DNA from: Deltaproteobacteria bacterium
Lineage (GTDB): Bacteria > Desulfobacterota > Deferrisomatia > Deferrisomatales > BM512
Length of the DNA: 64,000 nucleotides
Reading direction: 5' to 3'
Assembly: GCA_002869015.1 (NCBI GenBank)
Contig: PKTT01000062.1
Location: 26,257-90,256, forward strand
Every line of letters begins with the position of its first letter. The stretch's first letter is position 1. The notes beneath the pieces are model-generated. The model was not told the DNA's origin and did no database searches. It worked only from the letters and a program-made list of their open reading frames with translations. Shown piece by piece: positions 33,683 through 56,153 of this stretch. Position numbers and translations under genes: made by a program.

Positions 33683-33687
33683 CTCCC

Positions 33688-35718: not shown

Positions 35719-35736
35719 CTCACTTCCATCTCATTG

Positions 35737-38140: not shown

Positions 38141-38686
38141 TCAGGCCCTGAAAAGGCTTTTGCGAAGGGACCTTTTTACATCATTTACTATCTCTGGGTT
38201 GATGATTGGGGAGTCTTCACACCAACCCTGCCATGGGCCTAGCAGCTGCTCATAAGGTATTCCGCAACCTCTTGAATAAACCGCCCCAACGCCTGGAAAG
38301 TTCTCTTCGTTGACTCTCTTGGCGAGTGCCATAAGCTCGTCGCGCCTAGCTTTTGACTCAGTGTGGAAGATTACCGCAAATGTTTTATGCCCCCCGGCGC
38401 CCTTGCCGAATTTTCCGTAGACCTCCTCCCCGGGGAAGGTCTTGCTAAATAGGGTCAGCCAATCATAGCAATCGTTATAACTCTCAAGCGCAACCGTAAC
38501 TTTCCAACATTCAAGGGCTTCTTTTAGATGTATTCTCTTCACATCACCCCTGAGCTGCTCCCAAAGCCCCGTCATACAGGGGAGGCACCTTTTATTTAGC
38601 CTATCTTTTGTGCGCCGCATCAGGGGGTCGCTTTCAAAGCTGGTCCACCCCTCAAGTGAAGCGCGCCTTCCTAAATGGATTTCCAC
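38141..38686 (-). CDS. Hypothetical protein (start uncertain)
   Basis: 181-aa ORF from GTG. Internal ATG alternatives exist (MRRTKDRL, MTGLWEQL). No recognised family. Confidence 0.4.
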   Translation of the reverse strand: MEIHLGRRASLEGWTSFESDPLMRRTKDRLNKRCLPCMTGLWEQLRGDVKRIHLKEALECWKVTVALESYNDCYDWLTLFSKTFPGEEVYGKFGKGAGGHKTFAVIFHTESKARRDELMALAKRVNEENFPGVGAVYSRGCGIPYEQLLGPWQGWCEDSPIINPEIVNDVKRSLRKSLFRA

Positions 38687-40282: not shown

Positions 40283-40879
40283 TTACCGCGCCTCGGCAGC
40301 AACGGATATATCGCTTCCCACCCAGCGACGGAAAAGGTTGTGCTCGATCTTCAGCGCGTCCAAAGCTTTGCCGACACTCTGATCGATTATGTCTTGCACC
40401 GTCTTTGGACGGTGATACATAGAGATCATAGGGGGCATGAGAATCGCGCCGTTGTCTGCGCAGCGGTTTAGTATCTCAAGGTGTCCTTTGTGCAGCGGCG
40501 TCTCCCTGAACATTATGACCAGATTTCTTCGCTCTTTCAGGGTCACGTCAGCAGCGCGCACGAGGAGGTTCTCATTGTAACAGTGAGCTATAGCTGAAGC
40601 GGTCTTCACCGAGCAGGGTGCGATAACCATCCCCTCAGTTATAAATGAACCGCTGGCGATCGAAGCCCCGACGTCATTAAAATCGTATGTGACGTCTGCC
40701 AAATCCATTACATCATCGACCTTCCAATCGGTCTCAAGGACTATGTTGCGCTTACTGGAATCTGAGATGACGAGGTGGGTCTCTACATCTTCTACGTCTT
40801 TTAACACCTCAAGAATTCTAATCCCGTATTGGGGACCTGTTGCGCCTGAGATGCCTACTACTATTCGTTTCTTTTTCAT
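40283..40879 (-). CDS. ubiX: UbiX-family flavin prenyltransferase
   Basis: 198 aa. MKKKRIVVGISGATGPQYGIRILEVL... is typical of UbiX/Pad1. ATGA overlap with the upstream UbiD gene. Confidence 0.9.
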   Translation of the reverse strand: MKKKRIVVGISGATGPQYGIRILEVLKDVEDVETHLVISDSSKRNIVLETDWKVDDVMDLADVTYDFNDVGASIASGSFITEGMVIAPCSVKTASAIAHCYNENLLVRAADVTLKERRNLVIMFRETPLHKGHLEILNRCADNGAILMPPMISMYHRPKTVQDIIDQSVGKALDALKIEHNLFRRWVGSDISVAAEAR

Positions 40880-42240
40880 GACCGGCCTCCAGAAATGATT
40901 GCGGCAGCCAAGTCAGCTGCATCGGGCTGGATTTTCACCCTTAGATGTTCATGGTTGTGTCCGTAGCCGGTTGCATCAATGCCCAGCTTGGAAGATGTAA
41001 AATCTTCCCCGGTAGATGGGTCTATCGGCGAACCTTTAAGCCCGGATAGTATGATAGTGTCTTCATCGGGACGATATCGCGTTGCCATAGACCATTCAAC
41101 TTCACGCGTCCTTGTGGGGTCTATATCTGAAGCAACCGCGACAGCTTTTTTTACCACTCCGGTATTTAGGAGCCGCTCTAGGAGAGCTCGTATCTGACTA
41201 CTCTCAGCCTTCGACAAGCTAACGACAACCGAGGAGCCAAAAGTGCCTCGTATTAAATGGAGGGTTTCGAAGAATTCAAACTCTCCCTCTACCTGAGAGG
41301 CGATAAATGTCTGCGCCACCTCCCTCAGGAGCACATCTCCCTCCGGGCCATCTGGAAGAAGTGCGTGGTAGATAGGGTTTTTGCGGTGGGTTATACGTGT
41401 AACAAATAAGCTCGGCGTGGTGGTAAAAAGCTGGCTGTAGCCACCTATCTCGCCAAGCGGCCCATCCTGCCTTTCGGTAGCGGGGTCTACATATCCTTCG
41501 AGCAAAAATTCAGCCTCTGCGGGCACCAATATCCCAGTCTCTTTAGCTCTGCCGACCTCTACCGCTTCCCCCCTTAAGCCGCCGGCTACTGAAAGTTTGT
41601 CTGCTCCGGCGGCCCCCTTGAAGGCGAAGGAGGCGAATATGAGCGGGGTCATGCCTATGACGACCGCCACTGGCATCCGCTCCCCACGCTCCTTGTATTT
41701 TGCGTATATCGACGAAAGCGGCGGGTTCAGGAGGGCGGCGCCAAGCTCTCGATCCCCCCTGAGTTCCATCCTGTGTATACCGCGCGCGGTCTCTCCCGTG
41801 TCAGGGTCGATTGTCTGGAGCAGCCCGGTGGTCACGAAGGGACCAGAGTCACCCTCGTAGTAGGTGAAAATTGGCATAACCTCCGAGAGGCTGGCCTCCG
41901 GCTCCAGCACTTCCTCCACGGGCATATTCTCAACTTCTTTTGGTTTAACAGGGCTCTTTAGGCGCTCCCTTAAAGCCCTGGTATATTCGCCACCCGGTGA
42001 TACCCCCATCTCCAAGGCTAGAACATCTTCGGAATAGACAAGGTTGCCCACCGCTGATACTTCATGCCCTTTGAGCGAGGTAAAGAGGACTGCTCCCTTA
42101 TCGAGAGCAGCCGCCCTTGAGAGGCACGCCGCGCATTCGAAGCGGGGGGCGAGAGTTTGTTCAATCTCGACCAACCGCTCCGTTAGCCGAAGTGCCTTTA
42201 ATGCCTCATTCAGGTTGCGAAAGGCCACCCCTACCTCCAC
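40876..42240 (-). CDS. UbiD-family (prFMN-dependent) decarboxylase/carboxylase, short type
   Basis: 454 aa with a UbiD core (ARGIHRMELRG..., EAEFLLEGYVDPATERQDGPLGEIGGY). The GTG start overlaps the ppcD-like stop by 10 nt. Confidence 0.85.
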   Translation of the reverse strand: MEVGVAFRNLNEALKALRLTERLVEIEQTLAPRFECAACLSRAAALDKGAVLFTSLKGHEVSAVGNLVYSEDVLALEMGVSPGGEYTRALRERLKSPVKPKEVENMPVEEVLEPEASLSEVMPIFTYYEGDSGPFVTTGLLQTIDPDTGETARGIHRMELRGDRELGAALLNPPLSSIYAKYKERGERMPVAVVIGMTPLIFASFAFKGAAGADKLSVAGGLRGEAVEVGRAKETGILVPAEAEFLLEGYVDPATERQDGPLGEIGGYSQLFTTTPSLFVTRITHRKNPIYHALLPDGPEGDVLLREVAQTFIASQVEGEFEFFETLHLIRGTFGSSVVVSLSKAESSQIRALLERLLNTGVVKKAVAVASDIDPTRTREVEWSMATRYRPDEDTIILSGLKGSPIDPSTGEDFTSSKLGIDATGYGHNHEHLRVKIQPDAADLAAAIISGGRS

Positions 42241-42488
42241 TCTTCGGGTATGGGATTAATCCACTCAATTATCTCTATAGACCACGGCTTGCCAACCCAC
42301 TGCCCGCGACCTAAACGGGGCCAGAGGCGATCGCCATACTTGTCCGGGTCGGAGGATGCGCGGGCCTTAACAACCTTGCAGCAGTACTTGGCCTTGGTTG
42401 AAGCCAGATCGCGAATTATCATGTCCTGCGCCTGGTCCTGAGTGAATTCATTCAAATCGGTTAAGATAAAAGTGTCGTATTCAGCCAT
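42231..42488 (-). CDS. ppcD: Small (about 10 kDa) subunit, PpcD-like by size and position
   Basis: 85 aa with no recognisable domain. Occupies the position of the 10-kDa delta subunit of phenylphosphate carboxylase between UbiD-like genes. Confidence 0.55.
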   Translation of the reverse strand: MAEYDTFILTDLNEFTQDQAQDMIIRDLASTKAKYCCKVVKARASSDPDKYGDRLWPRLGRGQWVGKPWSIEIIEWINPIPEEWR

Positions 42489-42511: not shown

Positions 42512-43960
42512 TTAGTCCTTAAAGCCGTAGTTGGTCCAGTTACTGAGGACCTTCTCCTTCACGTCCTCGGGATAGACCTTGTTGAAGGAGACCATGATCG
42601 GCTTGTCGGACTCCTTCCAATGGCGCGGGAAGAGGCAATCGAAGAGCACCTTCGAGCCCTTTGACTTTTTCCGCTCCTCCGGGGATGCGAATGGGTTGAG
42701 CGGTGTACCAAGGTGGTTTTCGTAAAGATGAATACCATCAATTGGGTGGCACCTTGTTGAAATGGCGTGAATGACCTCATCCTTGTTGTAGATATCGGTC
42801 TCCTCATCGACGACCACCGCCATGTGGAACCAGGGCCCCAGCTTTGAGCCGAAGATAAGGTTTGCGATCTGCTGCGCTATGCCTGTGTAAACATGCGCCG
42901 TTCCAATTACCACCAAATGATGAGTTGATTCGGGCCACATGTAGACGCCGGTAATCGGAATGCCCTGGCTCTTTAAGAGCTTCTCCATCTCAAGACCAAG
43001 GGAGAAGGACCTGAGGAGCTGCCCCTCATCTGTAGGTACACCCATATTAGAGAGCGGCATGATGGGCTTTTTGCGGTAAGTTATGCAGCGAACCCTGTAG
43101 ACCGTGCGGGGCTCTCTCGGGGAGGTGCGGTAACCTGTGTACTCACCAAAGGGAGCTTCCTCAAGCTCGATCCCTGGGAGGATATCGCCTTCGATGATAA
43201 TCTCTGCGTGGGCAGGCACATAGAGGTCGCTGGTCTCGCACTTGACCATCTCGACGCCCTCACCCATAAGCATTCCGCAGAACTCGTCTTCGGGGATTGA
43301 CGCAGGCGCGCAAGCCGCGATGCCCGCGAGCGGGTCCATTCCGATAACCGTCGCAAAGGGCATCGGCTCGTTCCTCGGCACATGCTTGTAGTGGAACATT
43401 TTGCCCATATCGGAGAATGGCAGCACGGGGCCGACCATCGTCTTCTCGTCAAAGACCATTTGGCGGTACATACCCCAATTTATGTCCTGGGTATCGGGGT
43501 CTTTACCGACTATCATATGCCAGGTGCTTAGATAGCGGCCGCCGTCACCGCCATGAACCATGGGGGCGGGCAGGTCGAAGAGATTGACGTCATCGCCGGT
43601 GATTACTACCTCTTTACAGGGAGCATCTGCGCGGTCAACGATGACGGGAGGATAGGATTTGCCGCTCTCTGTACGCTCAAGGTAAGCAGCGCATATTTCC
43701 GGAATAGGCGTATCGGGGGGAAGCCCGAGTGAAATGGCAAGCTTACGATAGGTTGCCAGTGGCGCGCCAAAAGCCTCGAAGCCTTCGTAATCCTTGATAT
43801 TCTTAAAGTAGGGCGAGGGGCCCTTTATCTCGCATACGCGGCGCACGATGGCGCCCATCTCCATGTCCCAGTCGACCTCCTGCTCCACGGTGACCAGGTC
43901 ACCAGCTTCGTCAAGTGCTTTAATGAACTCTCGGTTGTCTTTGTAATATTTGTAAGGCAT
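42512..43960 (-). CDS. ppcA: UbiD-family large subunit of phenylphosphate-carboxylase-type enzyme (alpha/beta assignment tentative)
   Basis: 482 aa with a UbiD fold (GGRYLSTWHMIVGKDPDT..., AEIIIEGDILPGIELEEAPFGEYTGY). Synteny matches ppcBCAD. Confidence 0.75.
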   Translation of the reverse strand: MPYKYYKDNREFIKALDEAGDLVTVEQEVDWDMEMGAIVRRVCEIKGPSPYFKNIKDYEGFEAFGAPLATYRKLAISLGLPPDTPIPEICAAYLERTESGKSYPPVIVDRADAPCKEVVITGDDVNLFDLPAPMVHGGDGGRYLSTWHMIVGKDPDTQDINWGMYRQMVFDEKTMVGPVLPFSDMGKMFHYKHVPRNEPMPFATVIGMDPLAGIAACAPASIPEDEFCGMLMGEGVEMVKCETSDLYVPAHAEIIIEGDILPGIELEEAPFGEYTGYRTSPREPRTVYRVRCITYRKKPIMPLSNMGVPTDEGQLLRSFSLGLEMEKLLKSQGIPITGVYMWPESTHHLVVIGTAHVYTGIAQQIANLIFGSKLGPWFHMAVVVDEETDIYNKDEVIHAISTRCHPIDGIHLYENHLGTPLNPFASPEERKKSKGSKVLFDCLFPRHWKESDKPIMVSFNKVYPEDVKEKVLSNWTNYGFKD

Positions 43961-43978: not shown

Positions 43979-44521
43979 CTAGCCCCAGCCCTTGTTTCCG
44001 ACCTTGTCTACCAGCGGTTTCCATTTGCCCTGCGCGCGCAAGATAAACTCGCCAAGCTCTCGCAGGACGCCCTCTCCACCCTTACGGGTAGTCACGTAAT
44101 GGGATATCTCTTTGACCTCGGGGACTGCGTTGGCGGGAGCAACCGCAAAACCGACAAGCCGCATCACTCCCATATCGATAATTTCGTCGCCAACAAAGCA
44201 GACCTCTTCGGCGGTTATTCCCATCTCTTCCATAATCTCTTTACACTTCGCGGCTTTGTCCTTGGCCTGGTAAAAGCGCTTTACGCCTATCTCCTCACAA
44301 CGAACCGCGACTGTCTTGGATTTACGGGTGATCATCGAGACCTCTATACCCATCATCATGAGCATGTTGGCTCCGAAACCGTCGTCGTGGCTGAAGGTCT
44401 GGAACTTTACGCCTTCGTCGTTGTAGAGGATGTGTCCGCTTGTCAAGACGCCGTGCACATCCAGGATGACAATTTTTATTTTTGATGCCTTTTCAATCGC
44501 TTCATTCTGGTCGTAAACCAT
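43979..44521 (-). CDS. ppcC: KdsC-like HAD phosphatase subunit (PpcC-like, gamma)
   Basis: 180 aa with close KdsC-type layout (IKIVILDVHGVLTSG..., VCFVGDEIIDMGVMRLVGFAVAPANA, GGEGVLRELGEFILRAQGK). Motif I reads DVH rather than DVD. Confidence 0.75.
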   Translation of the reverse strand: MVYDQNEAIEKASKIKIVILDVHGVLTSGHILYNDEGVKFQTFSHDDGFGANMLMMMGIEVSMITRKSKTVAVRCEEIGVKRFYQAKDKAAKCKEIMEEMGITAEEVCFVGDEIIDMGVMRLVGFAVAPANAVPEVKEISHYVTTRKGGEGVLRELGEFILRAQGKWKPLVDKVGNKGWG

Positions 44522-46092: not shown

Positions 46093-46992
46093 TTGCTTAT
46101 GATAAACCTCAACCAACTGCGAGTCTTCCACGAAGCAGCCAAGTGCCAGAACTTCTCTGAGGCTGCCAGGAATCTATGCGTAACCCAGCCCGCCGTCACA
46201 GGCCAGATACGCTCTTTGGAAGAATCTTTGGAGATAAGGTTATTCAAAAAACGCGGGAGAAAGATGCTCCTCTCCGAAGCAGGAGCGGTTCTCTTTAGCC
46301 TTGCAACAAAAGTTTTCGACCTTGAGCAGGAGATGGAGCAGGTTATCGCAGAGATGCACGAGTTAAAACGAGGCATCCTAAAGGTTGGAACCACAAAGAC
46401 CTACGCCCGCTACCTTATGCCCTCTTTGATCTCAAAGTTCAGAAAAAAACACCCGGATATTAAAGTTATCCTGGATGAAGGCAGCTCGATGGAGATAACG
46501 TCCAGTCTCTTGGACCTTCGTAATGAGCTGGCGGTGGTAGCGGCGCACGAGGAGATTCCCGGCATATCGACCATACCCTTTCGAGAGGAGCCGGTAAGGT
46601 TGGTTGTAGCCAATGAGCACCCTTTCGCAAAGAAGGGTACTATCGAGTTTAGCGAGCTGGCTGGGCAATTCATAATTCTAAAAGAGCAGCAATCGAGTAC
46701 GCACCAAATTGTTCAGGAAGCTTTTACCGAGCATGGCTTGACCCCTAACGTGCTGGTTGAGACCAGTAACGTCGAGTTTATCAAGGAGACAGTTGAACGC
46801 GGAGAGGGGGTTGCCTTTCTGGTCTGGTCATCCATAGAGAAAGAGATCAACGCGCAGAAGCTGAAGGCCATAGAGATAAAGGGGTGTCACCTTTCGCTCC
46901 AGGTCGTAATATGCTTTCTGGAGGAGGGCGGACTCTCACCGGCGGCCAAGGCCTTCCTCAATATTTTGAAGGAGGCTTGCGAGACCGCTTAG
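46093..46992 (+). CDS. LysR family transcriptional regulator
   Basis: 299 aa. N-terminal HTH (LNQLRVFHEAAKCQNFSEAARNLCVTQPAVTGQIRSLEESL). Divergent from the ppc operon. Confidence 0.9.
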   Translation: MLMINLNQLRVFHEAAKCQNFSEAARNLCVTQPAVTGQIRSLEESLEIRLFKKRGRKMLLSEAGAVLFSLATKVFDLEQEMEQVIAEMHELKRGILKVGTTKTYARYLMPSLISKFRKKHPDIKVILDEGSSMEITSSLLDLRNELAVVAAHEEIPGISTIPFREEPVRLVVANEHPFAKKGTIEFSELAGQFIILKEQQSSTHQIVQEAFTEHGLTPNVLVETSNVEFIKETVERGEGVAFLVWSSIEKEINAQKLKAIEIKGCHLSLQVVICFLEEGGLSPAAKAFLNILKEACETA

Positions 46993-48041
46993 GGCGAAAT
47001 AAACATCCCTTCAAGGTCCAGCAGGCTTTCAAGGTAGAGGTCTGGCTTCTCGCCTTTGAGCGGCCTGTGCTCCTTCTCTCCACCTTTTATTATCGCGCAC
47101 TTAACTGATGAAGCGCGGGCGGCCTTCAAGTCGCTCATCGAATCCCCAACCATAATGGCCTTATCCGGAGATAGTGACATCAGCTCCAAAGCCTTTTGGA
47201 TACCCTCCCCATCCGGCTTCATCAGAGCTACATCGTTTCTAGTTATAATTACATCAAAGAGGCCCCGCCACTGGAAGCGGTCCAAAATTTTATCACCGAC
47301 CTCTCTGCCTATATTACTCACCATAGCGATAGGGAATTTATTTTCCTTGAGCTTCCTCAACAGCTCTTCTGCTCCGCTGCTTTCGCTCCATCTATCCAGA
47401 GCGTCATGGTCATATTTGTCATAGATGGGGCCTAAAGCAGCATCAATCCTTGATATTGCTTCACGGTCGAAACCCTCTTTAACGTAGGCGGCTTTACGGA
47501 TACCTGCGTAATCCACGTCTTTTAAGATTGCTTCATCGAAACCAAGCCCAAGGAGCGCACCTTTAAGCTCAGCCTCGGCCTCAAGAAGGTTCCATTGAAA
47601 ATCGACCAGCGTCCCTTCGAGGTCAAATATTACACCTTCAAGGTGACGATCACCCCCCCTCATCTCTAGTGAAACGGAGATCTCATCGCCATTTGAGAGC
47701 GATAGAAGATCGCGGAGGCGGTAGGGTGAGACAAGTTCAATTTTATCTGCGGGGTAATCATCGACCTCAGGTAAAACTATAACCGCCGGAACCAATCCAT
47801 TGACCCTGACCGGATAGCAGATTGCACTGCAAAAACCCGGCGCTGGTTTTACGGTGCTTGAAGAAGATACTTTGTCCCAATGATCTTTTATTGAGAGGCG
47901 ATCTTTCGAGAGAGTGAGGTTGAGAGTTCCCGGATAGGGCTCCCTTCCCAGCGCGGAAGTAAGCTGCGGCTTGACCCAGTCAAGTTCAGTAAAAAAATTC
48001 GCTTCGTTTAGCCCCTCCGACACTCTCGCCCTGAATTCCAT
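46989..48041 (-). CDS. Fusion protein: archaeal-type CTP-dependent riboflavin kinase domain (DUF120) + HAD hydrolase domain
   Basis: ORF 46989..48104. Start moved to ATG 48041 (GGGAG RBS). The N-terminal ...LGREPYPGTLNLTL... and ...KIELVSPYRLRDLLSLSNGDEISV match MJ0056-type RibK as recalled. The C-terminal HAD has motifs VIFDLEGTLVDF and MVGDSMSDLKAA. Confidence 0.7.
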   Translation of the reverse strand: MEFRARVSEGLNEANFFTELDWVKPQLTSALGREPYPGTLNLTLSKDRLSIKDHWDKVSSSSTVKPAPGFCSAICYPVRVNGLVPAVIVLPEVDDYPADKIELVSPYRLRDLLSLSNGDEISVSLEMRGGDRHLEGVIFDLEGTLVDFQWNLLEAEAELKGALLGLGFDEAILKDVDYAGIRKAAYVKEGFDREAISRIDAALGPIYDKYDHDALDRWSESSGAEELLRKLKENKFPIAMVSNIGREVGDKILDRFQWRGLFDVIITRNDVALMKPDGEGIQKALELMSLSPDKAIMVGDSMSDLKAARASSVKCAIIKGGEKEHRPLKGEKPDLYLESLLDLEGMFISP

Positions 48042-48066
48042 ATCTTTTTTCTCCCGAGAAAAACAA

Positions 48067-48090
48067 TCGGGCCCTCCAAAGAGGGCCCGA
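48067..48090 (-). terminator. Rho-independent terminator after the pps operon (hairpin usable on both strands)
   Basis: TCGGGCCCTC-CAAA-GAGGGCCCGA. On the minus strand it is followed by TTGTTTTTCT and then directly by the RBS of the ribK-HAD gene. Confidence 0.6.
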
Positions 48091-48122
48091 CTTTTTACGT
48101 GCAAACTAACGCATCAAAAACA

Positions 48123-48623
48123 TTACTCTTTCATCTCCGAGAAGACGGCATTCTCCATAGCCGCCATCTCCTCTTTCTCTCCTTCGAGCCACTCATAGGT
48201 AAAGGGCTTGGCGGTAACTCCAGGAAAGGATTGGTCCCTTGCACCCAAAAGCTCCATCTCGTAGACCATCATTTCACTTGGCTTTACAGCCTCAAGGCTA
48301 TCCTTGACTTTCTTGGCCTTGCCTTTTACCAGATAAGCAAGGTTACCATTGCCGATTATATGAACCCCTGCGAGGCCCGAGGCATTGATGTTGACAGCCG
48401 CGGTGCCTTTGGAGTCAACGGCAAACCTCAGACGCTTAGAGTCCATAGCAACTGCCCATGTATATGCTGAACTTGGGTAACCATCTGCGCCAGCAGTCAG
48501 AAGCAAGGCGGGTGCTCCAGGCTGAAGAAAACTGACTAAATTTTCGGGCATCTCTTTTAACACACCGCTCATTTCCTTACTCCTTCTATGCTTATCTATG
48601 CATTCATCGCTTAACCATCTCAT
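48123..48623 (-). CDS. Pyridoxamine-5'-phosphate-oxidase-like (FMN-binding split-barrel) protein in the ppsC position
   Basis: 166 aa. ATGA overlap with ppsB (alternative start MSGVLK at 48572). ...PALLLTAGADGYPSSAYTWAVAMDSKRLRFAVDSKGTAAVNINASGLAGVHIIG... looks like the PNPOx-like family. No CBS-domain pattern. Confidence 0.5.
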   Translation of the reverse strand: MRWLSDECIDKHRRSKEMSGVLKEMPENLVSFLQPGAPALLLTAGADGYPSSAYTWAVAMDSKRLRFAVDSKGTAAVNINASGLAGVHIIGNGNLAYLVKGKAKKVKDSLEAVKPSEMMVYEMELLGARDQSFPGVTAKPFTYEWLEGEKEEMAAMENAVFSEMKE

Positions 48624-49750
48624 TTAAAGCGTACCCCTGTGATGAGCTGGCCTACGATCCTGTCCATAGCATCCTTCTTCTTCTCCGTCTTGGCCTGGGC
48701 CTCTTTCTTGGACCAGACTGATTCAGGCCTGACCTGAAGGATAATTATGTTGGATGGGAAGGAGAGATCCCTGTCAATGCCAAACTCAATATCATAGGGC
48801 TTGCCATAATAACGATCGATGGTTTTAGAGACCTTGCACAGCTCAACGAGTTCGTCACGCTGGAGGCAGAAACGGTTGCGGTCTTCTTCGCAAACCGCCA
48901 CCTCTTTGATATCGCTACCGCCCTCGTTGTAGACGCACTGGATCTCCTTTGCCCCTTTAGTTGAGCTGATGACATCCAAGGTAACCTTGTCCAGGAGGTA
49001 GTTGTCCGGGGTCACAAGCCCGCTGACCACTGCCTCACCGAGCCCGTAGCTGACATCCACCGAGATCTTTGAGCGGTCGCCATTTAAGGGATTAAGGGTG
49101 AAGATGACACCGGATACCCTTGAATTAACCATTTTGGGCACGCCAACTCCGATGTTCAGGAGGAAGCCCATGTCTTTGTTCATCCGGTAGGTGATCGCCT
49201 CAACGTGGTATGCGCTGGCCCAGGTCTTTTTAACGTAATCGACCAGGTCTTTTTCGCCCATAATGTTGAGGTACGTTTCCATCTGACCCGGCATTGACAC
49301 TGCACCTGAAGAACGAACCGCCACCCTTAAATTCGGGACACCGGCCAAATCGCAGAGCTTTCCATACTGTGAACATATCTCGTCCACCAACACCTGCGGG
49401 ACGGTAGCGTCATTTATAAGGTCTAGGGTAAAGTCACTTGCAGCTTGACATTTTTCCACTGAAACCTCACCCAGGGAGTTTATATATTTCCCCAGCTCAT
49501 CAAGAATTCCAGTTTCACGGATAAAAATGTCATTCGCCTTAAGCGTGAGAGCGAAACCGGGGCTAATCGGAATACCAGCCTTTCGCATTTCGCCCAGATT
49601 GGCGTTTTTCTTACCAACCAGCGGGAAGTCGGAACCTTCAAGCTCCTCATACCAGAATGACAGGCTATTTTCTTTCTCAGACATGGCCATTCCCTGACTA
49701 TTTTGAAATTCATCTTCCATCATAAAAAATTTAACTTGAGCCGCTTCCAT
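48620..49750 (-). CDS. ppsB: Phenylphosphate synthase beta-like subunit (PEP synthase N-terminal ATP-binding part)
   Basis: 376 aa. DFPLVGKKNANLGEMRKAGIPISPGFALT is typical of the PEP/pyruvate-binding (PPDK_N) domain. Adjacent to ppsA. Confidence 0.8.
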   Translation of the reverse strand: MEAAQVKFFMMEDEFQNSQGMAMSEKENSLSFWYEELEGSDFPLVGKKNANLGEMRKAGIPISPGFALTLKANDIFIRETGILDELGKYINSLGEVSVEKCQAASDFTLDLINDATVPQVLVDEICSQYGKLCDLAGVPNLRVAVRSSGAVSMPGQMETYLNIMGEKDLVDYVKKTWASAYHVEAITYRMNKDMGFLLNIGVGVPKMVNSRVSGVIFTLNPLNGDRSKISVDVSYGLGEAVVSGLVTPDNYLLDKVTLDVISSTKGAKEIQCVYNEGGSDIKEVAVCEEDRNRFCLQRDELVELCKVSKTIDRYYGKPYDIEFGIDRDLSFPSNIIILQVRPESVWSKKEAQAKTEKKKDAMDRIVGQLITGVRFK

Positions 49751-49753
49751 TTC

Positions 49754-51610
49754 TTATGCCCTCTCTACGATGACTACGCTGCCCTGATCGCCATCAATCC
49801 TTATGGTGTCACCGGTCTTGATTACTGATGTTCCGTTGCCTGTGCCAACAACAGTGGGCAGGCCATACTCACGGCAAACAATAGCCGCATGGCACATTGC
49901 GCCGCCCACGTCGGTTATGCAGCCGGCAATCTTGGTGAAGGCAGGTGCCCAACTCGGCGAAGTAGTGGTTGCGACAAGTATCTCTCCTTCTTTGAGATCG
50001 GCGAGGCCCTCTACGGTCTTGATGACGCGAGCCTTACCCTCGACCAGCCCTGAGGAGCCGGGTGAGCCCATAAGCTCGTCGGATGGGGCGCCTACGGCTG
50101 CTTCCATGCCCTTAAGCCAGTTCTTCAACGTACCTGTGGTGACGCCCCAGAGCATAATGCTGAAGGGCTCTGTTACGACATCCGGGGGGGTACCAAGGGC
50201 TGGCGGGGGAGTCCACTCCTGGAATTTAGCGATAACGCCCTTGCGCCACTCCAACTCCTTGCCCCAATAGGAGGGACCAAGGGATTTCACGCCGGTAGCC
50301 CAAGCTGTTACGTAATCCCAAAGGGCTTCTTTGATCTCGCCGCGCTTCATAAGCCAAATCTCTTCACGGTCTTTAATGAAGCCGGCAGAAACGAGTATGT
50401 CTGCGACCTGGCGCATCTTGTTCCAGAAGACGGAGTGGAACCAGTTCTCTACGTAAAAGCAGTGGTCCTCGACGTAGGGGAAGACTTTTTTAGCCATGCC
50501 AAGGGCCTGCTCGAAGGCAACGCGATCCTCGTCGTTGTCGATAAGAGCCATGTACTCTTCAACGATCTTTTCGCTCTCTGCCAGCAGTTTCTCAGTGGGG
50601 CGACCGACCTCTTTGCCAGCATTGATCGCGTCAATGTGCATGCGAATGGAGGAGAAGGGAATGTTCAGGTCGTCATTCCAGGACTTATGGTGGTGATACC
50701 ACCCAGTGCCTGTTGAGACCCAGAACCAGGGATAGCGGGATTTTTCAAGCTCATCCAGCCAGTATTTTCCGGCGCTGCTTTTTTCAAGCGCCGCCATCAT
50801 TTCCGTTGCATCCCTCTCTATAAGGATCTCATCAGCAAGGTTCTCCTCAATTGCGAGCTTTGCCAGCCTGATTAGCTCAGCATCAGGACGGTAAAGAACG
50901 ACATCAATGCCGGAGACCATCTTTGTCAGTGTAGAAATCGGAATATCGGGGAAAATTGAGTTTGCCGTGTTGATGAAGGTAAGGTAAGCGGCATAGCCCA
51001 GATTCAAGAATTCAAAGTGGTACTGCCAAATAGTCAGCCCCATGTTGATGAGCTCGTCGTACTCGGTCAGCAGATGATATCCGCTGCCGGTGCCCTTATT
51101 CTCAAAGACAACGCTCTCATCCTCAACCTCGGGAAGAGGCTTGAAGGAGACTGCTTCAAGGTCCGAAAGGAGCTTGTTTACCTTCACCTTCCATTCGGCA
51201 TAAAGGGAATCCCAGTTTTCATAATAGTAACCTGCGCGCTTCATGAATACGGGGACACGCTCGCCGATCTCTTCAGGATCGGCCACGCCAACTGGAGTTA
51301 TGTAGACATAACCGTTAACGACTCTGTGGTCTATTCCATTTGCCGGGGGCATAAGAAACGTACGAGTGTTATTCTGCGAAAGCGCCAGGTACCATGCTTC
51401 ATCCCAAATAAGGTCGAAGGGATAATGGGGCTCCGGGTAATGGAGGCCATCATAGAACCAAAGCTGTTCATCCTCATACTTACCCCTTTCGGGGTCTTCT
51501 TTTGAGAATTGGTAGTTGTAGGGATACATGCGCTCCCAACCCTCGGTGCCAGGAATCGTCGGAATGTCATGGGGGCTCTTGAATTTTCCGCTCACTGTGT
51601 TCCTCCTCAT
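49754..51610 (-). CDS. ppsA: Phenylphosphate synthase alpha-like subunit (central/His-domain part of PEP synthase)
   Basis: 618 aa. C-terminal PEP-utilising mobile domain GEILVATTTSPSWAPAFTKIAGCITDVGGAMCHAAIVCREYGLPTVVG. Size is about 70 kDa, as for PpsA. Confidence 0.8.
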   Translation of the reverse strand: MRRNTVSGKFKSPHDIPTIPGTEGWERMYPYNYQFSKEDPERGKYEDEQLWFYDGLHYPEPHYPFDLIWDEAWYLALSQNNTRTFLMPPANGIDHRVVNGYVYITPVGVADPEEIGERVPVFMKRAGYYYENWDSLYAEWKVKVNKLLSDLEAVSFKPLPEVEDESVVFENKGTGSGYHLLTEYDELINMGLTIWQYHFEFLNLGYAAYLTFINTANSIFPDIPISTLTKMVSGIDVVLYRPDAELIRLAKLAIEENLADEILIERDATEMMAALEKSSAGKYWLDELEKSRYPWFWVSTGTGWYHHHKSWNDDLNIPFSSIRMHIDAINAGKEVGRPTEKLLAESEKIVEEYMALIDNDEDRVAFEQALGMAKKVFPYVEDHCFYVENWFHSVFWNKMRQVADILVSAGFIKDREEIWLMKRGEIKEALWDYVTAWATGVKSLGPSYWGKELEWRKGVIAKFQEWTPPPALGTPPDVVTEPFSIMLWGVTTGTLKNWLKGMEAAVGAPSDELMGSPGSSGLVEGKARVIKTVEGLADLKEGEILVATTTSPSWAPAFTKIAGCITDVGGAMCHAAIVCREYGLPTVVGTGNGTSVIKTGDTIRIDGDQGSVVIVERA

Positions 51611-51675
51611 AGGTTTTTAAGACTTAGTATGATTTAGCGTTTGGTAATGGTTTTAAAAAATAAGTATTAATAACG

Positions 51676-52323
51676 CTAAAGCCTGAACCAGCGAGGCTTA
51701 TCAAAGCGCTCGGTGGTCTTGAGTATTTTGCTGTTGAAGTTCTCTCCGCAGCTCTGGTTCATTTCATGGGTGAGTTCCTTGAAGACCTCGCTCCCGAGAA
51801 ACATCCCGATATCCACAGGATCCTTGAAGGTGAGCTCCAAGAGGACTTCGCTGAAACCGCCGATTAAGATGTTCCACTCTCTTGTGAAATCAACGTAATC
51901 GAGCTTGTCAATTGCAGGTATAAACTCGTTTTCCATGAAATCGTCGTAGCACTTTTCCTTACCTGGGCGGATATCGAAGTACTGGTTGAATTTCCAAACG
52001 CCCTCTTGGATTGAATACTTTTCAGGACCAAACTTGCGCTTTTGGACAAGCACTCTGGAGGTGTACTGGGAGACTAAAGCTTTGAGGTCTGACTTTATCT
52101 CCTCGAATTCCTTGGAAGCGAGGATGGTAAAAAGCTGCTGTATGGTATCGACGCTTTTTACGGAAATGATTCTTGGTCCCTGGCCTGACATGACATAAAA
52201 ACCGCCAACCGAGTTAAACCCCAACTCGTTGCTCCTCGGGATGTATGATTTTGAGATAAAATGCTCGTATTCATCCTCTGAACCTGGCAATACGTTCCAG
52301 CTCTGGGTGAACAACAGCGACAT
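51676..52323 (-). CDS. Hypothetical protein made of two homologous ~100-aa halves; first gene of the pps operon
   Basis: ORF 51676..52356. Start moved to ATG 52323 (AGGAG RBS). Internal duplication is visible by eye. No recognised family. Confidence 0.55.
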   Translation of the reverse strand: MSLLFTQSWNVLPGSEDEYEHFISKSYIPRSNELGFNSVGGFYVMSGQGPRIISVKSVDTIQQLFTILASKEFEEIKSDLKALVSQYTSRVLVQKRKFGPEKYSIQEGVWKFNQYFDIRPGKEKCYDDFMENEFIPAIDKLDYVDFTREWNILIGGFSEVLLELTFKDPVDIGMFLGSEVFKELTHEMNQSCGENFNSKILKTTERFDKPRWFRL

Positions 52324-52454
52324 CTCGTTCTCCTTTCGACCTTGGTGGCTTCTCAAAAGACCGGCTTAGCCTGATATAGAGAGCCAGTTAAACACTTTTC
52401 ATATCTCCCGCCTGAGCCACAAAGGTGCACTCAAGGGAATGGGAGTTTTCTAAA

Positions 52455-52469
52455 GCAAAAGGTGTGCCC
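52455..52469 (-). promoter_or_regulatory. Sigma-54-type promoter candidate for the pps operon (GGGCAC-N5-TTGCT)
   Basis: The minus strand reads gGGCACaccttTTGCTt, matching TGGCAC-N5-TTGCW except for the first T. Lies about 130 nt upstream of ATG 52323 and downstream of the OMP-gene terminator. Confidence 0.5.
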
Positions 52470-52617: not shown

Positions 52618-52722
52618 CCATTTTGGGCAAAAAAAGAGCGCCGACAAGGACGGAAGACTATCCCTGTCGACGCTCCTGGCCAAAAACCACTATGTATTTA
52701 TGGCCCGCAGCTAATTAGTTTT

Positions 52723-53673
52723 TTAGAACGCTACTATGGCCTTAAGCCATGTCTGGCTACCTTCAGGCATATTCTCGGCGCCATATTCCTGCATATGCTT
52801 TAACACTACCGAGTAGCGCCCCTTATTGGGCCACCACTTGATAGCAGGGCCTATGCCGGCGATTTTGCACTTGGAGTCGTCAAGCTCCTGGCCCTCAAAC
52901 TCGTCGTCAGTTACCTGCTCATAGTAAAAGCCGTTGACGCCAAATTCCCAGTCGCCGTACATGTAGCCGATCGCGTAGTCGAAATGGAACTCATCGCCCG
53001 GATCTAGGGTGCCCTTCTCGCCGCCCATGACGTAGTCGTCGTTGTCAGTGTTGATGTCATACATAAGCTTTAAAGAGAAGTCCCAATTGCCGGCCAGGTA
53101 GGTCATTGCGACTACAGGCTCAAAGGTCCAGTGGTTGCGGCTGAGAAGCTGCGTTGACGGGTCATCCTCGTCATAATTTCCGGTTGGAACGTAGGTGTCG
53201 ACTGTCGCTACAAGATGAAACTGGGGGCTGAAATGCCAACCCAGGATAAATGGGCTGATTATGATATCCCCGAGTCCGGCTGAGTCTTCATTGACCAGGG
53301 TGTCACCGCCGGCCTTGACCTCGACATCGGCGCTATAGAGGGGCACAAAGATGTGCGCCGCCCATGAGGCGCCAAGGATCTCCTTGTCGCTGACGTAGAT
53401 GAAACGTGGAACCTCAGCGATTACGCCTGCGTCGAAATCGACCGGGACCTTGTCGCCATCGGCATCCCTAAGCTCGTCCTTACTAATGTATCCAAGGTAG
53501 TTGATAAAATAATTTCCCGGCGGAGGGAGGATGCCAACGACGAAGTCCTCTGCCCCATTGGGGTAGTGCTGCCCACCTATGGCGAACGCCTGCCCGGAGG
53601 CTATAAATGATACGACAACAAAGATTATTGCTCCCATCGTGGTACTAAAATTAAATGATAATTTTTTCCGCAT
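52723..53673 (-). CDS. Outer-membrane beta-barrel channel of the 'MetA-pathway of phenol degradation' transporter family
   Basis: ORF 52723..54078. Start moved to ATG 53673 (AAGGA RBS, signal peptide MRKKLSFNFSTTMGAIIFVVVSFIASGQAFA). N-terminal HYPNGAEDF...PPPGNY pattern, alternating beta-strand sequence and a C-terminal Phe. Confidence 0.7.
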   Translation of the reverse strand: MRKKLSFNFSTTMGAIIFVVVSFIASGQAFAIGGQHYPNGAEDFVVGILPPPGNYFINYLGYISKDELRDADGDKVPVDFDAGVIAEVPRFIYVSDKEILGASWAAHIFVPLYSADVEVKAGGDTLVNEDSAGLGDIIISPFILGWHFSPQFHLVATVDTYVPTGNYDEDDPSTQLLSRNHWTFEPVVAMTYLAGNWDFSLKLMYDINTDNDDYVMGGEKGTLDPGDEFHFDYAIGYMYGDWEFGVNGFYYEQVTDDEFEGQELDDSKCKIAGIGPAIKWWPNKGRYSVVLKHMQEYGAENMPEGSQTWLKAIVAF

Positions 53674-53765
53674 AACTCTGTCCTTTCGCTTGAAGAGTCT
53701 CGGCCGCAGCGGCCAAAATAATGAATGAAGATATAAATGCTTCTTGCGTATTTGATAATTAGTGA

Positions 53766-53780
53766 GCAAAAAGCAGGCCA
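53766..53780 (-). promoter_or_regulatory. Sigma-54-type promoter candidate for the outer-membrane channel gene (TGGCCT-N5-TTGCT)
   Basis: The minus strand reads TGGCCTgctttTTGCT with correct GG/GC spacing, about 93 nt upstream of ATG 53673. Confidence 0.4.
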
Positions 53781-54147
53781 ACACAGATAAAACATGATTT
53801 TCCGGGGATGTTATCTCTTTTGAATTATGCTTGGAGGGATTTACTGACAAAAACACGTCACTCTTGTCGCATAAAATCATCCGCCCTCCTCTGTGTGCGC
53901 AAAAAAATCCTTCTGCCAGGAAAAAGAAATTCTTAGCCCAGACAAAAAATTTCCAAAAAATAAAAGTAGCTAGCTTAAAAAAAGCGCCAGAGGCTACCTG
54001 CCCATGGCGCAAATTTTTTCGGCGGGAAAATGCTACCGAATTGGTAAAAGTCAAAAACAGCCCGCTAAGACCCATCAATGGTCCATATCAGGTCTTTCGA
54101 CCAGAGAGGATACTTGACATTAGTTCGCGTGCCTTTCCGCTGGCTGG

Positions 54148-55449
54148 CTATGGCGACTTTATCTTTTCAAATGCACTTCCGCCTCCTGATGTTGCGTCAA
54201 ACCCAACCTTTGAGCCCTCAGCGCTACCTGCCGACGACGTATCGATGACATACCCCTCAAGGCCAGTCATCATTACCATGTCTCTTTCAGGGTTAAAACG
54301 GGTTGCAAGGGCCCACGACACCTCACGGGCATCCCGCGGGTTCACATCGTCATCCACAACAGTGAGAACCTTTAAGCGGCGGTCGATACTTAGCGCGTGG
54401 TATATCAGACGGCGCACCTCAGTTGATTTCATACCTGAAACCGAACAAATTGCCTTGAAACCACAAGTTCCGGGCTCCATTTCGAGATCCACAACACCAT
54501 GGAATAGCGCCTGGAGTTGACTAAGGAGCTCCGTGCCCGCAGCAAGGGAGAGCAGATTGTCAACCTCGCGGGTCCACGGGCAGAGGCCGGGGTAGAGAAT
54601 CTCTTCACGGCGGGTTAACAGCCCAATCTCTATAACAGGGCTCACATTCGTGAAGTAATTGCCGCTGTTTTCACCAAAGGGGCCCTCACTTTCACGTATC
54701 CCGGGCAATATCCGTCCCTCCAGGATGACTTCGGCAAAAGCGGGCACTTTGAGATCAACGCTCTTACAGCGGCAAAGCTCCAGAGGAAGCCCCCTTAACG
54801 CGCCGGCAGTTTCAAACTTCTCCGGCCCACCGGGACCGACCTTCACAACGGAGGCCAAAATAGTCGCGGGGTCTGCGCCCAAAATAACCGCCACTTCAAG
54901 CGGGCGTTTTTCACGCTCTGCATTTGCAATAAAATGAGTCATCGGTGGAGTGGCCGCGAGCATTCCCAACCGGTTTGGCCCGTGCACCATCATTCTGTGA
55001 ATGCCCAGCGCACCCTTTGTACCATCAGGGTCTTTAGCTACAACCAACCCTGAAGTTATATAGGGGGCTGCATCACGCTCGTGGTGGGTAAGGATTGGGA
55101 GCTCTTTCAAAAGGTCTATATCCTCGCCAATTACAACCTGCTGCACCGGCGGGGCGCCCTTAAAGTCAACCGGTGGCAGCCCTTGGACCTTTCTCTCTAT
55201 ATACGTCTTTGCCAGATCCTTTTCAGTCGTCTCAAGGGCAACTGCTGCCAACTTACGGCTACCAAAAAGATTACCGGCGATCTTTGCACGGTCATAGCCC
55301 TTTACGTTCTCAAAGAGAACTGCACATCCGGTGTCCTGCGCTTCCCTGAGGAGGGCGGCTACCTCAAATTGCGGGTCTAACGGCTCTTCGACCCTTATGA
55401 GGTCATCATCAATCTTTTGGAGGTACCCGCGTAAATCCCTGTATGACAT
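54148..55449 (-). CDS. UbiD-family decarboxylase/carboxylase, short type (fourth paralog in the window)
   Basis: 433 aa with a UbiD core (GALGIHRMMVHGPNRLG, AEVILEGRILPGIRESEGPFGENSGNY). Confidence 0.85.
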   Translation of the reverse strand: MSYRDLRGYLQKIDDDLIRVEEPLDPQFEVAALLREAQDTGCAVLFENVKGYDRAKIAGNLFGSRKLAAVALETTEKDLAKTYIERKVQGLPPVDFKGAPPVQQVVIGEDIDLLKELPILTHHERDAAPYITSGLVVAKDPDGTKGALGIHRMMVHGPNRLGMLAATPPMTHFIANAEREKRPLEVAVILGADPATILASVVKVGPGGPEKFETAGALRGLPLELCRCKSVDLKVPAFAEVILEGRILPGIRESEGPFGENSGNYFTNVSPVIEIGLLTRREEILYPGLCPWTREVDNLLSLAAGTELLSQLQALFHGVVDLEMEPGTCGFKAICSVSGMKSTEVRRLIYHALSIDRRLKVLTVVDDDVNPRDAREVSWALATRFNPERDMVMMTGLEGYVIDTSSAGSAEGSKVGFDATSGGGSAFEKIKSP

Positions 55450-55553: not shown

Positions 55554-56153
55554 TCACCCGGCAGAAACTTTAAGAGCAGCCTTTCTTGCCTCAAGCTCAT
55601 CAAGCGCCAATCTTTTACCGGAGGCCGTGAGAAACCAGCCCTTCAGCTCCTCGCTCAGCCTGGTGATATTTTCCTCAACGGAAATTGAAAAACGTTTTGG
55701 GTCTACCTCTTGCGCATCAGCGGAATATCGCCAAAGCTTATCAGCATCTTTAATTACAGCCTCCTCGATGGATTCGGCAAAGGCACCCGAATCGTGCCTG
55801 GAGATGATTTTCACAATTGCCGCTGTCTTTGCTTCGGGATAACCCAAATTCGAGAGTATAAGCTTCGCTATCTTTGCGCCTTCTTCTTCATGCAGGTCCC
55901 TCAGCTCGGGCCTCGTTGCCTTGGGGCCGAAGGCCGATGTTTGCAGATCCTCTGGCACAGCACTCCATCCGGTATCATGCAAAATAACCCCGGGAATTAT
56001 TACTTCTTCATCGCCACCCTCAAGCTTAATTAGCTTAAAAGAAAACTCCAATGCTATCTTGGTGTGTATTTCATTGTGCCTCGTCATCAAATATGGCTGG
56101 GCAACACGGTAAATGTTTTTGTAGATATCTTTAACAAACAAATTGTTATCCAC
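55554..56153 (-). CDS. HD-domain phosphohydrolase (paralog of 33688..34290)
   Basis: 199 aa. H...HD (HTKIALE...GVILHDTGW) and DADKL motifs. Collinear similarity to the other HD protein. Confidence 0.75.
   Translation of the reverse strand: MDNNLFVKDIYKNIYRVAQPYLMTRHNEIHTKIALEFSFKLIKLEGGDEEVIIPGVILHDTGWSAVPEDLQTSAFGPKATRPELRDLHEEEGAKIAKLILSNLGYPEAKTAAIVKIISRHDSGAFAESIEEAVIKDADKLWRYSADAQEVDPKRFSISVEENITRLSEELKGWFLTASGKRLALDELEARKAALKVSAG

Follow-up and report, generated by a model that had tools for sequence, protein, structure and literature searches.

PpsC of Thauera aromatica, the 24-kDa gamma subunit of phenylphosphate synthase, contains two CBS domains and is encoded together with ppsA and ppsB, 3' of ppsB. 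For this protein, only the stimulation of the reaction is known and not its mechanism, and a CBS-type PpsC has also been proposed for Desulfatiglans anilini (PMC6114531). Here we analysed a 64-kb stretch of a contig (the window), in which a pps operon sits in an anaerobic phenol cluster together with ppcBDAC, UbiD-like genes, UbiX, a riboflavin kinase–HAD fusion and a MetA-type outer-membrane channel. The four open reading frames of the operon given in a preliminary description were confirmed at their coordinates, all on the minus strand; these and the neighbouring features are as follows.

52634..52677, minus strand: intrinsic terminator, 18-bp stem with 9 G-C pairs and then a T run; ends the upstream channel gene and forms the operon's upstream boundary
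52454..52469, minus strand: sigma-54-type -24/-12 promoter-like site GGGCACaccttTTGCT, ~130 nt 5' of the 215-aa gene
51676..52323, minus strand: gene for the 215-aa, predicted tandem ferredoxin-like protein, candidate third Pps component; AAGGAG precedes the ATG
49754..51610, minus strand: ppsA, His-domain subunit of phenylphosphate synthase; NF006152 887 bits (cut-off 723), PEP-utilizers domain at residues 540-610
48620..49750, minus strand: ppsB, ATP-binding subunit; PPDK_N, E 2.5e-84
48123..48572, minus strand: gene for the 149-aa PNPOx-like split-barrel protein, a candidate accessory protein for flavin/prFMN
48065..48092, minus strand: intrinsic terminator, 12-bp stem with 8 G-C pairs and then a T run; directly 3' of the barrel gene, the operon's downstream boundary
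46989..48041, minus strand: CTP-dependent riboflavin kinase/HAD phosphatase fusion; PF01982 98 bits, HAD_2 91 bits
44545..45957, minus strand: ppcB, phenylphosphate carboxylase beta subunit, UbiD family; TIGR02724 637 bits (cut-off 469)
43979..44521, minus strand: ppcD-like HAD/KDO-8-P phosphatase-type subunit, homologous to Azoarcus sp. DN11 ppcD
42512..43960, minus strand: ppcA, phenylphosphate carboxylase alpha subunit, UbiD family; TIGR02723 704 bits (cut-off 565)
42231..42488, minus strand: ppcC, phenylphosphate carboxylase gamma subunit; PF09662 46.6 bits
40876..42240, minus strand: additional UbiD-family protein; TIGR00148 244.9 bits
40283..40879, minus strand: UbiX flavin prenyltransferase; NF004685 252.8 bits (cut-off 188)

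Because the two strong intrinsic terminators (52677-52634 and 48092-48065) enclose exactly the 215-aa gene, ppsA, ppsB and the barrel gene, we regard these four genes as one transcription unit. The GGGCACaccttTTGCT site has one mismatch to TGGCAC-N5-TTGCW; given three such matches in the window and two expected by chance, only its position is suggestive. An NtrC-type sigma-54 activator gene is present at 34324-35718. Two gene starts were revised: ppsA probably begins at GTG 51595, which has AGGAGG in front of it, and for the riboflavin kinase–HAD fusion ATG 48041 is more likely than TTG 48104, because the latter start overlaps the terminator.

We built a neighbour-joining tree of 81 ppsA sequences, using ppsA loci from other genomes, and obtained a 29-leaf clade, to which the window belongs, and a 52-leaf clade. 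Within the former, the 215-aa gene lies directly 5' of ppsA, at a distance of ~40-80 nt, in 27 of 29 loci; in the other two the contig ends at that point, so that all untruncated loci (27/27) have the gene. This adjacency spans phyla, including Thermodesulfobacteriota, an actinobacterial MAG (L009) and Campylobacterota (L027 and L028), and look-ups begun from the 215-aa protein found ppsA–ppsB directly downstream in four of four cases. The 52-leaf clade carries a CBS gene in 40 loci, and at none of its 52 loci does the 215-aa gene adjoin ppsA. Consistent with the earlier observation that a CBS-type PpsC is missing here, 41 CBS PpsC queries from other pps loci gave a best E value of 0.96 in the 64-kb window, and nothing in the other 28 loci of its ppsA clade. 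A CBS PpsC could nevertheless be encoded elsewhere in the genome, outside the window. The 215-aa gene is strictly adjacent to ppsAB and mutually exclusive with CBS PpsC. The preliminary description had offered the 215-aa protein as a possible PpsC replacement and named co-occurrence with ppsAB across genomes as a check; comparative genomics supports that proposal, as the gene tracks one ppsA clade.

The 215-aa protein resembles Thauera PpsC in size (both ~24 kDa), in its internal duplication (a pseudo-dimer) and in being encoded with ppsA–ppsB, in exactly the clade that has no linked CBS gene. It differs in gene position, 5' of ppsA rather than 3' of ppsB, and in fold, with tandem ferredoxin-like barrels instead of a CBS pair. 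Its construction from two homologous halves, as first noticed from the sequence alone, was confirmed by profile comparison (99% probability, E 7.8e-18) and by BLASTP between the halves (E 3e-6, 18% identity). The structural model contains two beta-alpha-beta-beta-alpha-beta domains, making the protein a predicted pseudo-dimeric, tandem ferredoxin-like (dimeric alpha/beta-barrel) protein. Its lack of a recognisable family also held, with no Pfam or NCBIfam match; no Pfam model exceeded its threshold (DUF4286, 18.2 bits against a cut-off of 25.8). The two-domain architecture is common to tandem ABM or dimeric alpha-beta-barrel proteins (PDB 3f44, 3mcs and 2pgc; E 2.5e-9 to 1e-7), although TM is only ~0.6 and identity 7-15%, and these are structural-genomics proteins of unknown function. 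The fold is generic: HemQ, chalcone isomerase and tandem ABM-like proteins all match it at TM ~0.6. Many proteins with a generic fold of this type are enzymes or small-molecule binders. The C-terminal tail, TERFDxPRWFRL (TERFDEPRWFRL), is nearly invariant and has pLDDT <50 in the model; a 96-aa deletion derivative of the protein (L010) still keeps it.

Alternatively, the tandem barrel could be a separate pathway enzyme or small-molecule binder and no physical component of the synthase, which we consider possible but rather unlikely; as such it might be a phenol or phenolate carrier, or a tautomerase- or ABM-like catalyst. The nearest folds are those of putative monooxygenases of the ABM type, an anthrone-oxidase-like protein, HemQ and chalcone isomerase, each of which binds an aromatic or tetrapyrrole ligand, and domain 2 contains conserved polar residues (K111, D117, Y126, Y143, E159, E163 and D171), as such a role would suggest. 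However, the gene stays beside ppsAB even at a locus with no ppc or downstream pathway genes nearby (L004), distant tandem relatives are located beside other split PEP-utilizer/PPDK_N pairs of kinase genes, whose neighbours and gene order differ, and converting phenol into phenylphosphate needs no extra reaction. The presence of the gene also tracks the sequence divergence of PpsB, which argues against a separate enzyme. PpsB identity is 0.39 between the ppsA clades and 0.62-0.66 within them; among the 87 columns conserved to 90% or more in each clade, 20 are not the same in the two, and a clade-specific indel of 6 residues separates them. The corresponding values for PpsA are 0.58 between clades and 0.70 within, with 8 of 217 conserved columns differing and no indel. 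The accessory switch is thus accompanied by far more divergence in PpsB than in PpsA.

On the comparative sequence evidence, we interpret the 215-aa protein as, most likely, a non-orthologous third component of Pps. It would be dedicated to a distinct clade of two-subunit phenylphosphate synthase, holding the slot that the two-CBS-domain PpsC has in Thauera and Aromatoleum. We infer that it binds the enzyme, most likely at PpsB, whose sequence diverges along with the accessory switch. Docking probably occurs through the invariant C-terminal tail, a segment of predicted disorder, and the bound protein may then stimulate or modulate the step in which the histidine of PpsA is diphosphorylated at the expense of ATP. 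Replacement here refers to occupation of the slot of PpsC and not to a demonstrated equivalence in activity.

The barrel gene had been described as a 166-aa frame coupled to ppsB through an ATGA overlap. Although the overlap exists at the DNA level, translation probably does not begin there. The true start is almost certainly ATG 48572, which has an AGGAG 7 nt upstream and gives a product of 149 aa; the frame from ATG 48623 is probably too long. Homologues are 149-155 aa long in ~90 of 97 cases, and the public annotation of the contig also gives 149 aa. The assignment of the product to the PNPOx type was upheld by a match to PNPOx_N (PF01243; 30.0 bits, cut-off 28.1) and by an AlphaFold model (pLDDT 92) that is a split barrel. 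In a Foldseek search of the PDB, the best match was the uncharacterised 2q9k (E 7e-8, TM 0.81), followed by entries for the prFMN maturase PhdC (E 1.6e-6 to 1e-5, TM 0.64-0.68); proteins that bind F420 or haem were also among the matches of similar fold, and the activity of the barrel protein is therefore not determined by its fold. The 2q9k protein, from Exiguobacterium sibiricum, belongs to the hypothetical-protein family NF005232 (PRK06733), and full-length alignments to the model of this family score 28-50 bits, under its cut-off of 93 bits. The family is uncharacterised, and a Bacillus member lies in a typA–phoH neighbourhood and not beside UbiD or UbiX.

The preliminary description had also considered the barrel protein as the PpsC replacement, and its place at the end of the pps transcription unit, between ppsB and the strong terminator, and the same ppsB–barrel order in L005 would be compatible with a subunit or stimulator of the synthase. 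We nevertheless regard this as very improbable. CBS PpsC accompanies the barrel gene in about ten Rhodocyclales-type clusters besides that of Azoarcus sp. DN11, and L086-L089 and several Rhodocyclaceae MAGs show the same coexistence. There the barrel gene is found ~10.8 kb downstream of ppsA, with riboflavin kinase, NUDIX and UbiX genes as its neighbours, and the coexistence argues that it is not a PpsC substitute. Moreover, 27 of the 29 loci in the ppsA clade of the window lack it, and the genes most closely related to it (63-70% identity) stand alone, without a UbiX, UbiD or pps gene within 8 kb. Barrel relatives occur in unrelated contexts, as would suit passenger genes that contribute neither to the activation of phenol nor to the supply of cofactor; for the pair of accessory genes, this is extremely improbable, because the 215-aa gene is beside ppsA in 27/27 untruncated loci across phyla and both genes lie inside the operon's terminators.

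The barrel gene has a recurrent neighbourhood of riboflavin kinase, NUDIX or HAD, and UbiX genes: in Azoarcus sp. DN11 and other CBS PpsC clusters it adjoins genes for UbiX and riboflavin kinase and, in some of them, NUDIX. UbiD genes, like UbiX, are often close to it. In L009 its slot is occupied by another protein of the PNPOx family, after which come riboflavin kinase and type 2 IPP isomerase genes. In the window it is co-transcribed with pps, and a terminator stands between it and the riboflavin kinase gene. The suggestion that the protein handles FMN or prFMN for the UbiD enzymes agrees with fold and context, whereas the lack of significant sequence similarity to PhdC and the stand-alone closest relatives count against it; on our analysis, this is the better-supported reading relative to PpsC replacement. 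Jointly, we lean, with modest confidence, towards the 215-aa protein as the third Pps component and the 149-aa barrel protein as a flavin- or prFMN-handling accessory of the UbiD-type phenylphosphate carboxylase and not a Pps subunit.

PhdC (Mycolicibacterium fortuitum) and YclD (Priestia megaterium) oxidise or deliver prFMN made by UbiX, and the barrel protein would be analogous to them, with putative flavin or prFMN binding and maturase activity. All three have a split barrel plus a C-terminal helix, and GYPxSA and ANLxRxG motifs in the flavin-binding strand and helix are common to the barrel protein and PhdC. The barrel family has an invariant Y-E-W-P in the loop ahead of the C-terminal helix, so that YEW stands at the site of the PhdC ExW motif (PMC13040415), whereas, on our reading of the alignment, PhdC Glu47 aligns to Ala or Gly (residue numbering of PMC13040415). 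Identity is 16-18%, and neither hmmsearch (E 0.24) nor hhalign (probability 0.3%) gives significant similarity to PhdC; as far as the alignment indicates, the PhdC catalytic motifs are kept only in part. Barrel-bearing organisms are anaerobes, unlike the hosts of PhdC and YclD, and the known PhdC-like sequences are all from Actinomycetota (PMC13040415). PhdC itself belongs, distantly, to the HpaC-like flavin reductases (PMC13040415), and the barrel protein could instead, as a small flavin reductase or a carrier of FMN, provide UbiX with the reduced FMN it requires, and not be a prFMN oxidative maturase. This alternative fits the riboflavin kinase gene that adjoins the barrel gene in most clusters and a Deferrisomatales homologue located beside a nitroreductase gene. 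We consider it unlikely, however, as no NAD(P)H-binding motif was identified in the barrel protein and the conserved Glu-Trp ahead of its C-terminal helix is similar to the catalytic loop proposed for PhdC. LpdD, a prFMNH2-binding chaperone with no catalytic role (PMC10865409), has a fold unrelated to that of the barrel protein. In L095, a locus of the window's ppsA clade, the gene beside UbiX encodes an LpdD homologue, indicating that phenol clusters do recruit prFMN accessory proteins.

Anaerobic phenol degradation begins with the activation of phenol by phenylphosphate synthase. An anaerobic phenol cluster spans about 38.9 to 55.5 kb on the minus strand of the window, with the following features in order of transcription.

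54148-55449 (-), UbiD-like protein, first gene of the cluster
52723-54078 (-), Phenol_MetA_deg outer-membrane channel
51676-52323 (-), 215-aa protein, between the channel gene and ppsA
49754-51610 (-), ppsA (NF006152, 887 bits; cut-off 723)
48620-49750 (-), ppsB (PPDK_N, 283.8 bits), a separate gene adjacent to ppsA
48123-48572 (-), PNPOx-like barrel gene, likely start ATG 48572, between ppsB and the riboflavin kinase–HAD fusion
46989-48041 (-), fusion of a CTP-dependent riboflavin kinase and a HAD phosphatase
between that fusion and ppcB (divergent), LysR-type regulator
before UbiX (-), ppcB, ppcD, ppcA, ppcC and a further UbiD-like gene, in this order
40283-40879 (-), UbiX, in the downstream part of the cluster
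after UbiX (-), PaaK-type ligase, the last gene of the cluster listed here

The four genes of the pps operon and their adjacency proved to be as the preliminary description had them. Exactly these four are enclosed by two strong intrinsic terminators (52677-52634 and 48092-48065), so that the 215-aa gene and the barrel gene both lie inside the ppsAB transcription unit; the barrel gene is co-transcribed with pps and cut off from the riboflavin kinase gene by a terminator. The first gene of the operon is preceded, at a distance of 130 nt, by a -24/-12 (sigma-54-type) site (52454-52469, -), which is not statistically significant by match count alone; the gene for an NtrC-type sigma-54 activator (34324-35718, -) lies 16 kb from this site. 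The start of the barrel gene had to be revised. It had been placed in an ATGA overlap with ppsB, but an internal Shine–Dalgarno sequence (AGGAG) precedes ATG 48572 and nearly all of the 97 barrel homologues are 149–155 aa long; the overlap is therefore probably unused, and ATG 48572 is most likely the true start. For ppsA, GTG 51595 is the likely start, and ATG 48041 is a likelier start for the kinase–HAD fusion than the listed TTG (48104), because the latter overlaps the terminator.

No CBS-type PpsC is encoded alongside these genes, as had been noted: 41 CBS PpsC queries from other pps loci reached a best E value of 0.96 across the 64 kb, and Pfam placed a CBS domain (PF00571) in neither the 215-aa protein nor the barrel protein. 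The gamma subunit has been reported as missing or unlinked in strict anaerobes, which was suggested as a possible cause of low turnover (PMC6114531, PMC7500099). The Thauera enzyme is the only phenylphosphate synthase known to have been dissected biochemically, and its third subunit is known only to stimulate the reaction (as summarised in PMC6114531). Either of the two accessory proteins had been put forward as a replacement for PpsC. In Azoarcus sp. DN11, a barrel homologue with 55% identity occurs in the order ppsA-ppsB-CBS ppsC-ppcBDAC-UbiD-UbiX-riboflavin kinase-NUDIX-barrel-metallophosphoesterase-channel, and other Rhodocyclales-type clusters have equivalent arrangements. Because the barrel gene coexists with a CBS PpsC in these clusters, we rejected the idea that its product substitutes for PpsC.

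Comparative genomics provided the decisive evidence on the 215-aa protein. Relatives of ppsA were sought in one genome per species, the 10 kb flanking each of them on either side were extracted, and every locus was scored for its neighbouring genes; the tree built from 81 ppsA sequences divides in two. The first clade (29 leaves) contains the window, Syntrophorhabdus, Desulfatiglandales, an actinobacterial MAG and Campylobacterota MAGs; here the 215-aa gene lies immediately upstream of ppsA in 27 of 29 loci, and in the remaining two the contigs end at the position of this gene. The second clade (52 leaves) contains Thauera, Aromatoleum, Desulfomonilaceae, Desulfobacterales and Rhodospirillaceae. 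Its loci carry a CBS gene in 40 of 52 cases, directly after ppsB or 6–9 kb downstream, and a 215-aa gene adjacent to ppsA in none of the 52. The co-occurrence with ppsAB that had been suggested as a check is thus complete among untruncated clade-one loci (27/27), and look-ups begun from the 215-aa protein agree with the ppsA-based survey. Linkage of the barrel gene is not kept across genomes: 27 of the 29 loci in the window's own ppsA clade lack this gene. One locus that encodes the 215-aa protein (L004) has no ppc genes nearby.

The kinase subunits differ between the clades to unequal degrees. Identity between the two clades is 0.39 for PpsB and 0.58 for PpsA; fixed differences that discriminate the clades occupy 20 of 87 conserved columns in PpsB and 8 of 217 in PpsA, and PpsB also has a 6-residue clade-specific indel. 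Judged from these alignments, PpsB has diverged with the accessory switch far more than PpsA. From the comparative evidence we conclude that the 215-aa protein is functionally tied to the two-subunit kinase, and that it is most likely a third Pps component, occupying the position of the CBS PpsC of other clusters.

The internal duplication reported for the 215-aa protein is well supported (half against half, hhalign probability 99%, E = 7.8e-18), and its model (pLDDT 89.7) shows two beta-alpha-beta-beta-alpha-beta domains, predicted to form a tandem ferredoxin-like barrel. It was rightly said to belong to no recognised family: there is no Pfam or NCBIfam match, DUF4286 scores 18.2 bits (below the cut-off of 25.8), no named Pfam family is reached, and ten relatives give sub-threshold or borderline Pfam matches at most. 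Against the PDB, the model matched tandem ABM-like proteins of unknown function (E = 2.5e-9) as well as HemQ, chalcone isomerase and an anthrone-oxidase-like protein, all with TM scores of about 0.6. The predicted fold thus has the architecture of the dimeric alpha/beta-barrel superfamily (ferredoxin-like, ABM/NIPSNAP/DUF4286). A PDB sequence search with the family profile returned only spurious matches, among them Rad50 and a designed protein. Syntrophorhabdales, Deferrisomatales and related MAGs supply the close homologues, almost all of which are exactly 215 aa long. When 1.84 billion cluster representatives were searched with the profile, just 216 relatives reached E ≤ 1e-3 and 12 reached E ≤ 1e-30, and many of the weaker relatives are single-domain proteins of about 100 aa. 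In the literature searched, we found no description of this family in phenol clusters.

Conservation within the family is among the highest in the last twelve residues (TERFDxPRWFRL), although these are predicted to lack order. This tail is retained in a 96-aa derivative from one MAG (L010, 9595-9885), which appears to have arisen by a deletion that left the first part of domain 1 joined to the last part of domain 2. In the mechanism that we propose, the 215-aa protein would bind PpsB through this C-terminal tail. Distant tandem relatives (207–220 aa) adjoin other split PEP-utilizer/PPDK_N pairs, which have a different gene order from pps and neighbours that include aldehyde dehydrogenase and aldehyde:ferredoxin oxidoreductase. 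Examples are the loci L099/L100 (3200-6663) and L097 (6001-10940), in which PEP-utilizer(+Rph_4th)/PPDK_N kinases stand beside such relatives, with aldehyde dehydrogenase, short-chain dehydrogenase or aldehyde:ferredoxin oxidoreductase genes as neighbours; these other neighbours suggest kinases for other substrates.

The split-barrel assignment of the second accessory protein holds, marginally by sequence (PF01243, PNPOx_N, 30.0 bits against a gathering threshold of 28.1) and with a model of pLDDT 92.4. In Foldseek searches of the PDB, the best match was 2q9k, an uncharacterised NF005232 member (TM 0.81), followed by all deposited structures of PhdC (E = 1.6e-6 to 1e-5; TM 0.64–0.68 over about 155 columns). 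PhdC was described recently as an oxidative maturase of prFMN; in cells, both PhdC and YclD activate E. coli UbiD, and the authors call the oxidant that serves strict anaerobes unknown (PMC13040415). The predicted barrel structure shares with PhdC and YclD an HpaC/PNPOx-like split barrel with a C-terminal helix packed on it, and GYPxSA and ANLxRxG motifs are common to the barrel family and PhdC. PhdC has a C-terminal ExW motif (Glu136, Trp138) in the loop before its last helix; the barrel family has, in the loop directly preceding helix 133-148 of the model, an invariant Y126-E127-W128-P129, in which the acid and Trp are adjacent (YEW) rather than separated by one residue. Another difference lies at the isoalloxazine site, where PhdC Glu47 aligns with Ala or Gly in the barrel family, a residue mapping inferred from published numbering; the best-scoring PhdC chain in the alignment is an E-to-A mutant. 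Sequence similarity between the barrel family and PhdC is not significant (hmmsearch E = 0.24, residues 25-76 only). A metagenome scan yielded a single PhdC-like ORF, which adjoins a UbiX gene (L090), and hhalign gave it a probability of 0.3% against the barrel family. A 55-aa PhdC fragment read off a PDB alignment had no match in the protein collection or plasmids, and the C-terminal consensus of the barrel family, searched against the PDB, retrieved nothing but noise. Four barrel-family members reach just 28–50 bits on NF005232 (PRK06733; cut-off 93 bits), on which a fragment of 2q9k scores 127 bits. We claim no link to YclD, because NF005232 could not be established as the YclD family; the only homologue found in an annotated collection has a typA-phoH neighbourhood.

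In about 12 phenol clusters the barrel gene accompanies UbiX and UbiD genes, and in three other contexts it stands alone; its closest relatives (63–70% identity) are stand-alone genes, none of UbiX, UbiD or pps lying closer than 8 kb. Against a maturase role count these stand-alone relatives, the non-significant similarity to PhdC, the Ala or Gly at the Glu47 position and, in the window, transcription with pps and separation from the riboflavin kinase gene by a terminator. A serious rival to this role is that the barrel protein is a flavin reductase that supplies FMNH2 to UbiX. In Deferrisomatales (L084/L085, 7337-8991), a barrel homologue lies apart from pps/ppc, with a nitroreductase gene before it and two small unannotated ORFs after it.

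In a Dermatophilaceae (actinobacterial) MAG (L009, 13001-15005), a different PNPOx-family (YhbP-like) protein occupies the slot after ppsB, followed by riboflavin kinase and type 2 isopentenyl-diphosphate isomerase genes, and in a Syntrophorhabdus-type cluster (L095, 12986-13935) a homologue of the prFMN chaperone LpdD is encoded directly upstream of UbiX. Phenol clusters thus appear to carry a variable cofactor-supply set. Judging from family assignments, UbiX would be the prenyltransferase of this set, riboflavin kinase would make FMN, and a NUDIX, HAD or metallophosphoesterase hydrolase would possibly make DMAP from DMAPP for UbiX; a flavin or prFMN accessory protein would complete it. The CTP-dependent (archaeal-type) riboflavin kinase is fused to HAD in the window and stand-alone in Rhodocyclales clusters, where NUDIX and metallophosphoesterase genes follow. 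Around ppsAB, the Syntrophorhabdus-type cluster also has three UPF0261 genes and a ThiF/ThiS pair.

The picture that emerges is a clade of phenylphosphate synthases whose probable third partner is not homologous to PpsC, together with a candidate accessory protein of anaerobes that resembles PhdC; whatever goes further than fold, homology and gene neighbourhood we infer. A strictly linked third protein in a clade of syntrophs and other strict anaerobes is a concrete candidate for reconstituting their Pps enzymes, and it offers a comparative handle on what the third Pps subunit does. Another testable candidate is the PhdC-like barrel protein that anaerobic phenol clusters carry next to UbiX, riboflavin kinase and a hydrolase that would handle prenyl phosphates. 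A broader proposal, which we advance tentatively and consider rather unlikely to be correct in both its parts, is that the 215-aa protein founds a new class of accessory subunits for the split ATP-dependent PEP-utilizer/PPDK_N kinases of anaerobes (phenylphosphate synthase and paralogues for other substrates), docking through the conserved C-terminal peptide, and that the barrel protein is an oxygen-independent counterpart of PhdC that matures prFMN for the UbiD-type carboxylases of strict anaerobes.

The surroundings of the cluster gave several minor observations. A histidine kinase gene (36978-38132) adjoins the NtrC-type activator gene. Flanking the cluster (33014-36894 and 55554-56153, -) are genes for a GHMP-family kinase, two HD-domain proteins and a further HAD hydrolase, and an HD protein resembling the 55554-56153 product also follows a pps-like cluster at another locus (L039). 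At the downstream end of the cluster, a 181-aa ORF (38141-38686, -) has no Pfam or NCBIfam match. Finally, 58750-63975 (-) encodes a 1741-aa protein of about ten cadherin-like/Big_9 repeats, in a region of raised GC content (about 0.60).
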